Translations under genes and position numbers: made by a program
Origin: Eledone cirrhosa
Taxonomy: Eukaryota
Assembly: GCA_964016885.1 (NCBI GenBank)
Contig: OZ024746.1
Span: 45,694,001 to 45,758,000, forward strand
Direction of reading: 5' to 3'
DNA: 64,000 bases
Shown: piece by piece, positions 41,808 to 49,957 of the stretch
Position numbering within the stretch: the first letter of the stretch is position 1
How the letters are laid out: every line of letters starts with the position of its first letter
Notes under the pieces: generated by a model
Told to the model about the DNA's origin: nothing
What the model saw: only the letters and a program-made list of their open reading frames with translations
Databases searched by the model: none

Positions 41808-43530
41808 ATACCACCAACGGCCATAACCTTGATAAATTCCTTAAAGATTCAATCAATACTTTTGCTAACCTAAACCTTAAAATTACTATAGAAAGTTACC
41901 AATGCTAACTTTCTTGACATTGATCTTGATCTACTTACTGCTTCTTTTAAACCTTATCATAAACCTAACGAAAATCTAATATATATATACACAAAGAGTC
42001 TAGCCATCCCCCTATAGTTTTTAAAAATCTTATTCCCAATATTAGCCATAGAATTTCTACCTTATCTTCGTCTCTAGACATTTTTAATAAAGCCCTTAAT
42101 AACAGCGGCTTTGCAGAACATATTAAATATTTACCTACTCCTCCCCCTAAAACTAATCACAATAAAAGGAAAAGGAAAATGATTTGGTTTACACCCCCAT
42201 TCTCTCTAACTGTCAAAACTAATGTAGGAAGGAAATTGCTTGACCTCTTAGACAAACATTTTCCCCCTAATCATAGATATTATAAGATATTTAATAGAAA
42301 TGTAGTTAAAATCAGTTACTCTTGCTGCCCATCAATGAAGTCTAAAATCACCAATTCTAATCGTACGAAAATAAATCCAGGATGCAGTTGCAGGAAGCCA
42401 GATGAATGCCCATTACAGGACAAATGTAATACCAAATCCGTTGTATATGAGGCCAAAGTGACACCTTTGATTAACAACCAGCCAGCCAGGAATGAACGAT
42501 ATGTTGTCATGACTCAGGACAGGTTCAAAACCAGGTTTTATGCACATGTCGTTTCTTTTAAACACTCTGATAAAAGAACAGCAACGGCTCTCGCAAATAA
42601 GGTGTGGGAATTCAAAGATAAAAACATCCCGTACTCAATCGATTGGTCTATTTTAGACCATTCGAGGGAATACCAAAGGGGCACAAAGAATTGTTCTTTG
42701 TGTACCACTGAACAATTTAGAATTCGACAAAACTTGAAAGCCACTTCAACTTGCCTGAACTCCAAGACCGAGATCTTCAGATGTTGTCCTCACCTGAAAT
42801 CACATCTGCTCTGTTACCTGGATTGACATTCCTATGATGACTCAACCACCTTGAACTTCTTCTCCGCTCTTTACGCCTTACATCCACTACGCTTTTTATT
42901 ACTCTCTGAACTCACTTTCGGTACCTTATATTCTTTTTCTCCCTTATCTCCCCTTATATTTAAACTTTTTCCTATGTTATTTATTTTCCTTATTCCCCCG
43001 TACTTTCTACCTTACCCTTTACATACCCACCTTTTTTATTTATAGACATTTATTTATGTGTGTATGTATGTGTTGTGTATATGTATATATGTGTATATAT
43101 ATATGTATGTATATATGTGTATATAATTATATATATCTGTATGTATATATATATGTATGTATATATATATATATATATATATATATATATATATATATAT
43201 ATATATATATATATATATATATATGTATATGTGTATATATGTGTATATATGTGTATGTATATATATATTTGTATGGTTGTGTATGTGTGTATGTATATAT
43301 GTGTATGTATATGCATAATTACATACAGAGTGATTTAATGTTTATTTTCATTGATTATTTGCTCCAGGAACTTGTTGAGTGCTCTAAATCAGCTATAAAC
43401 ATATATACCTTTATTTATTTATTTATTATTTGTCATATTCCCAACTATTTGTTTACCCCTTCCACCTTTTTATTTTTATATATATATAATATTTTTGTAT
43501 TTTCTTATATATATATATATACACACACAG
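41808..43530 (+). mobile_element. Penelope-like element A (5'-truncated; RT C-terminus, GIY-YIG, 3' UTR)
   Basis: NFLDIDLDL..FKPYHKPN..SHPP (frameshifted), then ORF 42179-42826 IWFTPPFS..KTNVG..KIFNRN..KISYSC, CxCx5Cx5C linker (CSCRKPDECPLQDKC), VVY..YVV GIY-YIG, CSLC..LN..E..CPH. Confidence 0.93.
42179..42826 (+). pseudogene. PLE A linker and GIY-YIG endonuclease reading frame (215 aa remnant)
   Basis: ORF track 42179..42826; upstream RT part is frameshifted and truncated. Confidence 0.88.
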
Positions 43531-43837
43531 TTCAAGAGTAACCAATCTTAAAGAGAGAGATGGAGATAGTAAAGGAGATATGAGAGGAAAGATTGGTGAG
43601 TTAGTTAGAAGCCAAAGCGTAACGGCATGTGCTCAATGTGCAATATGCAGTAGAAAGCAGCTAGGTGGCTGGGTTCATGCAGAGGTTAGGTGCGCAGAGC
43701 TGGAAATATTCATTAGTTAAGCAAAACAAGACCACAAATTTCACAAGGAAGACATTACTAAAAGATTGTCAACATATTTTAGTTTGATGTAAGGAATGTA
43801 GAGAATAATAATAATGATAATATTAATAATAATAATG

Positions 43838-43971
43838 TCCGTTTACAATTGTTTCGCTACTCCGTATAATATTTCTGGATCGGATGACTATGTATCATAA
43901 TTGATCTGGTTCAGTTGAAAATAATTAACATATTTAAAAAAACAGAGTGGCTCATCGGAACTCAAAGGAAT
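43838..43971 (-). ncRNA. Type I hammerhead motif in PLE B 3' UTR (left arm copy)
   Basis: Reverse complement of the motif at 48021-48154. Confidence 0.6.
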
Positions 43972-44307
43972 ATAAATTAAAATAATGTTACATAATATAA
44001 TGTTCCATATATTAGTTATTACTATGGTGCCTTGGTTGCATCAGCTGTCAGCCATAATCAAGCAGTACTCATCTGTCGAGGCTGCATTGTGTGAGATCTG
44101 CCTATAGGTAACAAAATGGCTGCCAAAGGGCATATTTACCTTACTAATTAGAGGGTGGTTTCAGGGGAAGTCACTTCTCGAGAGATTAGAGATTGTGTGT
44201 ATTTTATAGTTATGTGCTAGTATTTAAATTATTTAATTGAGAGACAATATAAGGGAGGTAACTTATAATTATCGAGTTCATAGCAATTTAACTTATTAGC
44301 TACAGGA

Positions 44308-48154: not shown

Positions 48155-49167
48155 CATTATTATTATTAATATTATCATTATTATTATTCTCTACATTTCT
48201 TACATCAAACTAAAATACGTTGACAATCTTTTAATAATGTCTTCCTTGTGAAATTTGTAGTCTTGTTTTGCTTAACTAATGAATATTTCCAGCTCTGCGC
48301 ACCTAACCTCTGCATGAACCCAGCCACCTAGCTGCTTTCTACTGCATATTGCACATTGAGCACATGCCGTTACGCTTTGGCTTCTAACTAACTCACCAAT
48401 CTTTCCTCTCATATCTCCTCTACTATCTCCATCTCTCTCTTTAAGATTGGTTACTCTTGAACTGTGTATATATATATATATATATATATATATATATATA
48501 TATATACATATATATATATATATATATATATATATATATATATATATATATATATATATATATATATATATATATATATATATATATATATATATATATA
48601 TATACATATATATATATATATATATATATAAAAATACAAAAATATTATATATATATAAAAATAAAAAGGTGGAAGGGGTAAACAAATAGTAGGGAATATG
48701 ACAAATAATAAATAAATAAATAAATAAAGGTATAAATGTTTATAGCTGATTTAGAGCACTCAACAAGTTCCTGGAGCAAATAATCAATGAAAATAAACAT
48801 TAAATCACTCTGTATGTAATTATGCATATACATACACATATATACATACACACATACACAACCATACAAATATATATACATACACATATATACACACACA
48901 CACATATATATATATATATATATATATATATATATAGGAAAAAGTATGACCCCGATGGCAGAGCTCAAGCTGTTTCGACGGCTATTATATATATACATAA
49001 ATACATACATATATATATATATATATATATAAATATATATATATATACACACACTCACATATATATATATATATATATATATATATATATATATATATTC
49101 ATACATACATACATATACATACAGATATATATAATTATATACACATATATACATACATATATATATA

Positions 49168-49364
49168 CTCAGTGCTCCTTTGGGAGCCCCTACATGGACA
49201 CACTTGAAGAGGAAGACCAAGGTTAACATATGTTGATGCCCTAAGGACAGACACTGGTCTGTTGGAGATGCAGGATATGGCAGCGATAATGAGGGACAGA
49301 GACCGCTGGAGAGAACTCGTCCATGGATCTCGGGAATTTTACCCGCCTTAGATAGATAGATAGA
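49168..49364 (+). mobile_element. RTE-like LINE 3' end with (TAGA)n tail, inserted in the right arm only
   Basis: [50 protein letters not shown]...PP*; absent from the left arm. Confidence 0.85.
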
Positions 49365-49851
49365 TATATATACACATATACACATATACACAACACATAC
49401 ATACACACATAAATAAATATCTATAAATAAAAAAGGTGGGTATGTAAAGGGTAAGGTAGAAAGTAGGGGGGAATAAGGAAAATAAATAACATAGAAAAAA
49501 GTTTAAATATAAGGGGAGATAAGGGAGAAAAAGAATATGAGGTACCGAAAGTCAGTTCAGAGAGTAATAAAAAGCGTAGTGGATGTAAGGCGTAAAGAGC
49601 AGAGAAGTTCAAGGTGGTTGAGTCATCATAGGAATGTCAATCCAGGTAACAGAGCAGATGTGATTTCAGGTGAGGACAACATCTGAAGATCTCGGTCTTG
49701 GAGTTCAGGCAAGTTGAAGTGGCTTTCAAGTTTTGTCGAATTCTAAATTTTTCAGTGGTACACAAAGAACAATTCTTTGTGCCACTTTGGTATTCCCTCG
49801 AATGGTCTAAAATAGACCAATCGATTGAGTACGGGATGCTTTTATCTTTCA

Positions 49852-49957
49852 ATTATTATTCTCTACATTCCTTACATCAAACTAAAATATGTTGACAATC
49901 TTTTAATAATGTCTTCCTTGTGAAATTTGTGGTCTTGTTTTGCTTAACTAATGAATA
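49852..49957 (+). repeat. Third copy of a ~106-bp segment of the PLE B 3' UTR
   Basis: Direct match to ~48180-48286 and reverse match to ~43705-43810. Confidence 0.9.

Follow-up and report, generated by a model that had tools for sequence, protein, structure and literature searches.

How does a retroelement come to lie inside a long inverted repeat whose arms run past its own end and into the DNA beside it? A 64,000-nucleotide stretch of Eledone cirrhosa DNA (assembly GCA_964016885.1, contig OZ024746.1, positions 45,694,001 to 45,758,000, forward strand), called the window below, poses this question: copies of two families of Penelope-like elements (PLEs), here termed A and B, converge in it tail-to-tail and are partly repeated in inverted order. 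On the + strand, A is followed by antisense B from 43525 to 46800, a filler, the reverse complement of 45195 to 42609 and a sense B piece that ends at 'site 1', one of two recurrent termini of the B family. We favour a snap-back during integration, because this strand polarity is that of the product of one continuous top-strand snap-back, and also because the block follows the end rule of its family, its joints are like other head-to-head joints and the timing favours a duplication without lag. That the inverted repeat was made while B integrated, by PLE-driven synthesis in which the complementary DNA (cDNA) snapped back on itself and then ran into the flank, is to us an evenly balanced proposition. 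The more specific course of events, in which a Penelope-like reverse transcriptase (RT) completed its cDNA and then, snapping back, copied a 0.9-kb piece of the chromosomal flank, is put forward tentatively.

The locus is built from the following parts, with positions in the window:

41808-43521, + strand: PLE of family A, 5'-truncated copy, placed in the Hydra clade from motifs and family copies
42609-45195 (2587 bp): left arm, made of 0.9 kb of the A 3' end, (TA)n and 1.67 kb of the B 3' part
43525-46800, - strand: PLE of family B, near full-length copy, placed in the Hydra clade from family ends, motifs and open reading frames (ORFs), with a 'tail' at 43705-43525
45196-46800, - strand: single-copy spacer (loop) with the B N-terminal domain and RT core
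46801-46806: filler of joint J1, six bases that match neither the B family nor the arm
46807-49854 (3048 bp): right arm, whole
46807-48518, + strand: B', part of the right arm, inverted copy of 45195 to 43525
48519-48612: (TA)n that separates B' from A', expanded to about 47 units (left arm, about 11)
48613-49854, - strand: A', part of the right arm, inverted copy of A from 43521 to 42609
49852-49958, + strand: short sense B fragment, equivalent to about 43815 to 43706, ending at the site 1 terminus

Self-comparison of window positions 40000-52000 found one long inverted repeat, interrupted by microsatellites alone, whose arms align in three blocks: 43477-45195 with 48518-46807 (96.9%, 1723 columns), 42609-43102 with 49854-49364 (97.4%, 494 columns) and 43198-43521 with 48936-48613 (95.4%, 328 columns). 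The length and identity of the repeat make a chance origin impossible. The right arm is the longer one because its TA/TG microsatellites have expanded and because it holds an extra block, 48937-49363, which splits A' and is found in this arm only. The single-copy stretch between the arms, 45196-46806 with the filler included, measures 1.6 kb and contains B's RT motifs, among them YRDD (45746-45757). B' has an 11-bp deletion relative to the left arm, and its ORF at 46822-47580 is open where the left-arm copy of B has a frameshift. Outside the right arm, 49842-49958 is the reverse complement of 43706-43820 (96.6%, 117 columns).

An earlier note on this DNA had described the 2.6-kb inverted repeat, the 1.6-kb spacer holding the RT and some 0.9 kb of A copied in antisense up to 49854; the alignments agree with all three, with arms that are 95-97% identical. 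The sense B piece at about 49852-49958 is absent from that description, and three of its details need adjusting. It placed the convergence of A and B at about 43530: the tail-to-tail meeting stands, with the B terminus at 43525, the A end at about 43500-43521 and a shared (TA)n tract. The sequence does flip at B's 5' end, not at 46806 as stated there; B is cut at 46800, and the six filler bases follow. That the arms carry GIY-YIG sequence of both families is correct for the C-terminal third of the A endonuclease, whereas A's GIY and YIG motifs (42440-42514) lie outside the arm.

Are A and B indeed PLEs, and of two families? We place both in the Hydra clade because of their motifs, formal domain support being weak. 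Pfam found no domain in the window ORFs, RT included, and a search of the PDB by sequence gave nothing useful. For the 359-amino-acid ORF of B, 105 homologues 630-890 amino acids long reached E <= 1e-5 (best 5e-68); PF26215 is present in many of them, and those with a named source are from a cephalopod and a sea anemone. When the A ORF and the three pieces of the B ORF were aligned with 36 of these proteins, all proved colinear with full proteins of 700-800 amino acids, and a profile of these 36 homologues and the window ORFs matched a retron RT in the PDB (E 0.0019). Homologue P0001 matched RVT_1 at E 0.0044 with 17.2 bits, under the 29.6-bit cut-off, and the sole Pfam match to GIY-YIG was that of homologue P0002, at E 0.012 with 16.3 bits, under the 22.6-bit cut-off. 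Besides YRDD, B has the motifs RWK (46690-46698) and DKTKN (46435-46449), the linker CNCRYPNAC (CxCx5C) and a terminal CDHC..E; A has the linker CSCRKPDEC (CxCx5C) and a terminal CSLC..E. The pattern IVY...YIG...R..H with a terminal CxxC..E is present in A, B and B'. The N-terminal part of A is missing, and RWK and DKT were assessed in B alone.

The traits given for the Hydra clade in the passages of PMC8557442 used here are RWK, a change from DKG to DKT, CxCx5C in place of CX2-5CxxC, CxxC near a conserved E, absence of CCHH from the GIY-YIG core, insertion into (TA)n and a length generally below 3 kb. RWK and DKT occur in B, the linker and CxxC near E in both B and A, and (TA)n lies at the B ends (28/28 other loci) and the A ends. 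No CxxC was seen between the GIY and YIG motifs, with the CCHH positions placed approximately. At about 3.3 kb, B slightly exceeds the length that is general in the clade. Its family further shows the partial tandems (pseudo-long terminal repeats, pLTRs), inverted 5'-truncated copies and frequent 5' truncation of PLEs, and in 38/38 two-ended clusters it has the optional PLE 'tail' at one end only. Hammerhead ribozymes are reported for Hydra PLEs in the same passages (PMC8557442). Rfam detected none in window 41000-51000 at E <= 1, with models that may miss minimal PLE hammerheads, and none at E <= 0.1 in three full-length tandem copies (30 kb in all); these searches yielded only microsatellite-driven microRNA (miRNA) look-alikes under thresholds. 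A and B are separate, abundant families that end at or in (TA)n and, judged by such sequence features, belong to the Hydra-clade PLEs; the earlier note had likewise described two different Penelope-like families. The only nucleotide likeness detected between the two is a stretch at 42253-42313, which encodes ...FPPNHRYYK... and is 80-83% identical over 48-61 nt to the B copies L009, L012 and L018.

If B followed its usual habit when it inserted here, what would its ends look like? The genome search with the 3' region of family B gave at least 1773 candidates and that for family A at least 1861; 40 of each were scored, so that rare further copies of the A/B junction could escape. The B 3' end, adjoining a TA-rich microsatellite, is at the equivalent of 43525 in 28/28 other loci. 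Alignments of 33 of 39 other B copies begin at exactly 46800, and at least 25 of the 28 copies that start there go on upstream, where they have a 54-nt leader and, about 10 nt away, an ATG. In most copies with a leader, the 43525 end of a partial upstream copy stands directly before it, as in the classical pLTR tandem. The B unit of about 3.3 kb comprises the 181-nt tail, the 54-nt 5' untranslated region (UTR) and a body of about 3.1 kb. The copy in the window has neither this 5' UTR nor the start codon, and at least two breaks (about 46015-46035 and 44936-45050) now interrupt its frame.

We surveyed 10 kb around each of 60 B loci (L091-L150), in which the B segments form 64 clusters. In all 38 two-ended clusters, one terminus is 43706 (site 1) and the other 43525 ('site 2'), and none of the 38 has two ends of like kind (1/1 or 2/2). 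Plain 5'-truncated copies with a single 3' end make up 15/64 clusters, and in the remaining 11/64, one end or more lies away from both sites. Head-to-head pairs, joined with small overlaps or short fillers, account for most two-ended clusters and are present in most B loci. The window block 43525-49958 has site 2 on its left, at 43525, and the equivalent of site 1 (43706) on its right, at 49958. It obeys the 38/38 rule and therefore looks like one insertion unit, in which the extra inverted piece (45195 to 42609) sits exactly at the head-to-head joint. The paired ends match the one-sided tail of PLEs and the behaviour of a PLE protein in vitro, which, according to the portions of PMC11167929 cited here, cleaves and extends both strands while its RT starts at two internal sites.

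Three observations on family B stand apart from the inverted repeat. A 182-bp repeat with a tRNA-like stretch (L139:2020-2201) occurs in 68/98 ten-kb loci; it is placed alike, at the (ATT)n run near 43830, in many B copies, is absent from the window copy and may be a subfamily marker or a repeated target. Locus L098 (G000:C2:345563500-345573499) is a young complex B insertion with a 2.4-kb inverted arm and a full-length copy that differ at 6/2190 positions, yet have 8 private variants in common; B source copies therefore carry private changes of their own. A contig from another organism holds B-family sequence at >=97% identity, so the family is shared with, or very recently separated from, that of a relative.

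At joint J1, B family homology stops at 46800, about 10 nt after the family ATG; the filler follows, and then the right arm from the equivalent of 45195. At joint J2, the A' end (equivalent of 42609) is joined to the B fragment by a 3-nt ATT overlap within an (ATT)n run. The arms of the inverted duplication flank a single-copy spacer, and J1 has no short inverted repeat or microhomology at the fold-back point. Both joints resemble other head-to-head joints of the B family with their small overlaps and short fillers. Near-symmetric (near-palindromic) joints number 7/49 in the family against 3.1 expected (P ~0.03), a mild enrichment.

Where did the inverted A sequence come from? A and B meet 3'-to-3' in (TA)n, an arrangement that would follow if one of two elements that seek out (TA)n had inserted into the tail of its neighbour. 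The earlier note offered two readings: (i) a composite RNA of B and antisense A that moved as one unit, and (ii) fold-back synthesis that ran past B's insertion site into flanking DNA. It proposed looking for the A/B junction elsewhere in the genome, and that search found it nowhere else among the scored loci: 0/28 other B 3'-end loci have the A flank, 0/60 ten-kb B loci have an A-family match, and 1/29 A loci has only a weak, 80% B-like match. With 40 of 1773 candidates scored, no junction recurs with different flanks. The A copy is truncated at 41808, since other copies align from there only, 11 of their alignments beginning exactly at that base. It retains an ORF remnant (41969-42826) with the C-terminal part of the RT, the CxCx5C linker and the GIY-YIG endonuclease, and a 3' UTR with internal TA/TG microsatellites (about 43040-43330) that ends in (TA)n. 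Other copies of A reach 43485-43521 in 24/29 cases and go further in 0/29. Of 603 positions compared, 8 hold the same non-consensus base in both A and A'; 4 of these bases are in 0/28-29 other A copies and 2 more in <=4%. A' is therefore a copy of this particular A. The A element probably inserted before B, in keeping with 5-6 variants that its two copies have in common and that occur in <=4% of other A copies.

Reading (i), with the variant that two independent A insertions hit the (TA)n tails of B and B', is the explanation to which we give the least credence, and we reject it. Both families do target (TA)n, and tail-to-tail nesting could recur by chance; against this stand the counts of 0/60 and 0/28, the shared private variants of A and A', and the left A copy, which runs 0.8 kb past the arm to 41808.

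Many A loci (L173:6372-6684, L188:6995-7212 and others) extend past the (TA)n at 43521, with a conserved stretch and then a TG/TA microsatellite. This extension may be A's own 'tail' or the start of a next tandem unit; the window copy of A ends at (TA)n without it. A search for the extension to the right of 49958, where it would bracket the insertion, gave one uninformative 3-mismatch match at 56669.

When was the inverted copy made? Over 1634 B positions, 14 substitutions are confined to the left arm and 15 to the right, a symmetric count, and the right arm also has the 11-bp deletion. They share 10 non-consensus B bases, 7 of them absent from every other copy sampled, and a search for four of these private variants found them in no scored genomic copy. 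The seven shared variants could be taken as a sign that the duplication lagged behind the insertion, and we dropped that idea after a control: by the control's definition, private variants common to both arms occupy 6/1630 positions (0.37%) in the window, and 56 other inverted pairs have a like density, 71 shared private bases in 21557 positions (0.33%). ADAR-type editing was rejected as their source, as 0/7 are A-to-G on the B sense strand. The private load of the spacer is 1.21%, against 1.22% expected without lag; the likelihood ratio of no lag over a lag uniform over B's residence time is 3.0-4.3, and the upper bound on a lag is about half of the time since the duplication. These counts place the duplication at or soon after the insertion of B. 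Since then the right arm has gained a LINE-like 3' fragment (LINE, long interspersed nuclear element) and a longer (TA)n, and the left arm a frameshift.

The remaining features lie within or beyond the right arm:

49169-49352, + strand: LINE-like 3' fragment, in the right arm only, with a frame that ends in ...MRDRDRWRELVHGSREFYPP and a stop
49959-50700: right-hand target flank, a (TA)n/(TG)n microsatellite

We presume the fragment to be LINE-like from its resemblance to such elements; it was inserted after the duplication. Its frame end, ...DRDRWRELVHGSREFYPP and a stop, is followed by (GATA)n/(TA)n, and the same terminal sequence also flanks another B locus, L024, which points to a third repeat family that ends at TA-rich microsatellites. 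The TA/TG microsatellites at 43040-43330, 48460-49170 and 49959-50700 and beyond gave many below-threshold Rfam matches to mir-297, mir-3149 and mir-1277, which we rejected as miRNA genes: they are composition artefacts of these microsatellites.

How could a single integration write this sequence? In the snap-back that we favour, the endonuclease would cut both strands in the (TA)n at the 3' end of A. The left 3'-OH would prime a first cDNA (cDNA1) at site 2, which would reach 46800, almost the 5' end of the RNA, and the right 3'-OH would prime a short second one (cDNA2, about 110 nt) at site 1. The 3' end of cDNA1 would then fold back by 1.6 kb and copy its own strand from 45195 to 43525, and synthesis would go on through the (TA)n into the A top strand as far as 42609, a template that would be single-stranded through 5' resection or strand displacement. 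Finally, the new strand would anneal to cDNA2 via ATT, and the gap would be filled. The components have precedents in the cited parts of the literature: for PLEs, PMC3846280 puts forward self-priming and host-DNA capture, and R2-driven insertions show snap-back, mostly onto the cDNA and more rarely onto target DNA close by (PMC11371274). Reading (ii) of the earlier note, fold-back synthesis into the flank, fits the strand polarity, the joints and the timing; we infer that the copy was the work of a PLE enzyme and not of host repair soon after.

Several points weigh against the snap-back reading. The sequence would be no different had a DNA-level fold-back quickly followed the insertion. The timing is a test of modest weight, its baseline mixing pairs of unknown history, and a short lag is possible, given that the shared B variants are absent from the scored genomic copies. 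The J1 filler has no complementarity to the sequence beside 45195, and no pre-existing short inverted repeat is indicated that could have paired into a hairpin; the joint enrichment gives weak support for self-priming in the B family. Among the matches listed (27; 1327 more), the read unitigs over 45300-47600 are 67-118 nt long, of high depth and made of family repeats, none bridges 46800/46807, and the sole joint reported among read pieces is normal B sequence of another organism. Nor was a second case found. Inverted flank copies were sought within 1.2 kb outside 53 B end pairs that face outward and at the 7 end pairs that could be tested in 38 ten-kb loci of A; the window aside, the counts are 0/53 and 0/7. 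This agrees with the earlier note, by which inverted pLTRs normally contain only the element's own 3' end, and makes the window structure a one-off in a set of about 60 comparable insertions rather than a novel type of element. Four candidates for a duplicated flank were rejected: L139, from a stricter single-alignment screen, is the 182-bp repeat of the 68/98 loci, L091 is an imperfect microsatellite, and L173 and L188 are the A-family extension past (TA)n that recurs in many A loci.

What else could have made the repeat? Among the alternatives, the one we take most seriously, while thinking it unlikely, is a later DNA-level fold-back duplication without the PLE enzyme: a double-strand break or collapsed fork near the 5' end of B, resection, fold-back at 45195, copying to 42609 and joining to the short arm, the sequence in between being lost. 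In its geometry the repeat matches fold-back inversions through single-stranded hairpins, which in the cited parts of PMC7467729 and PMC3907307 likewise show an inverted duplication, a single-copy spacer and arms abutting it. The filler and the 3-nt overlap suit end joining, the event is a one-off, and the B variants found in both arms and in no scored copy leave room for a short lag. The timing speaks the other way, both by the likelihood ratio and by the spacer count, which has P = 0.006 if the lag equals the time since the duplication. Described fold-back inversions are moreover usually seeded by short inverted repeats and often large or terminal (PMC7467729 and PMC3907307, same parts), whereas the window has no seeding repeat at J1, measures 2.6 kb and lies inside a retroelement insertion unit. 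The break would also have to fall within a unit that keeps both canonical termini, which is not improbable in itself. In the fold-back-inversion literature, none of the matches listed contains 'Penelope-like'.

An RNA route, in which read-through RNA of the resident B into antisense A much like a 3' transduction, was reverse transcribed and inserted in inverted orientation at the 5' end of B, strikes us as improbable. For PLEs, passages of PMC3846280 propose transcripts that read through into adjacent flanks and then undergo template jumps, and J2 lies in (ATT)n, ATT being the motif that the one PLE protein examined in vitro prefers to cleave (cited part of PMC11167929). This route requires a second event and with it a lag, against which the counts speak; no family RT start site lies at either end of the inserted piece, the copy ending at 42609 inside A coding sequence, J1 is outside any microsatellite, and the resident B has no 5' UTR or start codon. 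The DNA-level and RNA routes would both yield an identical sequence and are disfavoured by timing only, the RNA route also by these non-canonical ends. An assembly artefact, whether a fold-back chimera or a misplaced haplotype copy, we regard as very improbable, even though PLE tandem and inverted structures trouble assemblies (PMC8557442, as cited) and the short unitigs gave no bridge over J1. Assembly error is unlikely because the arms have diverged: they differ by 29 substitutions in 1634 positions, the 11-bp deletion, (TA)n length and the one-arm LINE fragment. Arms that came from a chimeric read would be nearly identical, J1 and J2 would not arise from a haplotype copy, and the window contains no ambiguous bases (N).

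What does the locus add? To our knowledge, PLE integration has been the subject of one in vitro study only, and we know of no established account of the steps that give inverted structures. This locus is a fixed natural product in which an inverted arm runs past the element end into the target, so that the template strand and the direction of copying can be read from it. Should the copy be the work of the PLE enzyme, such elements are able to duplicate the host DNA next to them in inverted orientation and to create long hairpin loci, and inverted host duplications would have a route driven by a retroelement. The 2.6-kb stem and 1.6-kb loop, if transcribed, would give a long hairpin over endonuclease sequence of two PLE families, and such a hairpin could feed small-RNA silencing of both. 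The two-site end rule, with sites 181 nt apart in one Hydra-clade family, constrains models of dual priming. As a single case among about 60 comparable insertions, the locus is of limited general importance.

Finally, we would like to place the structure among known systems. It is a variant of the inverted-repeat architecture known from PLEs, and its proposed mechanism has precedent in another retroelement class. Two processes of L1 offer a first comparison: in twin priming, the second strand primes too and the 5' part is inverted, with no duplication of element or flank, and in 3' transduction, flanking DNA is carried to new loci in direct orientation. The course of events proposed for this locus is alike in second-strand priming and in the carriage of flank; here, the copy is inverted and stands beside its template. 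The PLEs described in the cited passages of Craig et al. 2021 (PMC8557442) and Arkhipova et al. 2013 (PMC3846280) share RWK, DKT, CxCx5C, insertion into (TA)n and, to judge by motifs, an RT with a C-terminal GIY-YIG, and their complex insertions show the same 5' truncation, partial tandems, inverted 5'-truncated copy next to the 5' end and extension at one end. In contrast to these, the inverted copy in the window passes the terminus of the element and continues through (TA)n into 0.9 kb of neighbouring DNA; the B tail has 181 nt instead of the 30-40 bp reported in other PLEs, and the hammerhead is undetected by Rfam. We found no description of a PLE inverted arm that includes flanking DNA in the PLE and R2 papers cited here; such a report may exist elsewhere. 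The strand logic proposed here is also that of the snap-back 5' junction of R2, where, in the cited parts of PMC11371274, the cDNA 3' end primes before the 5' junction forms. R2 belongs to a different, non-LTR retroelement class and was followed in an engineered system in human cells (PMC11371274), whereas the window holds a fixed germline PLE case, about 1% diverged, with a 1.6-kb loop and 0.9 kb of flank copied.

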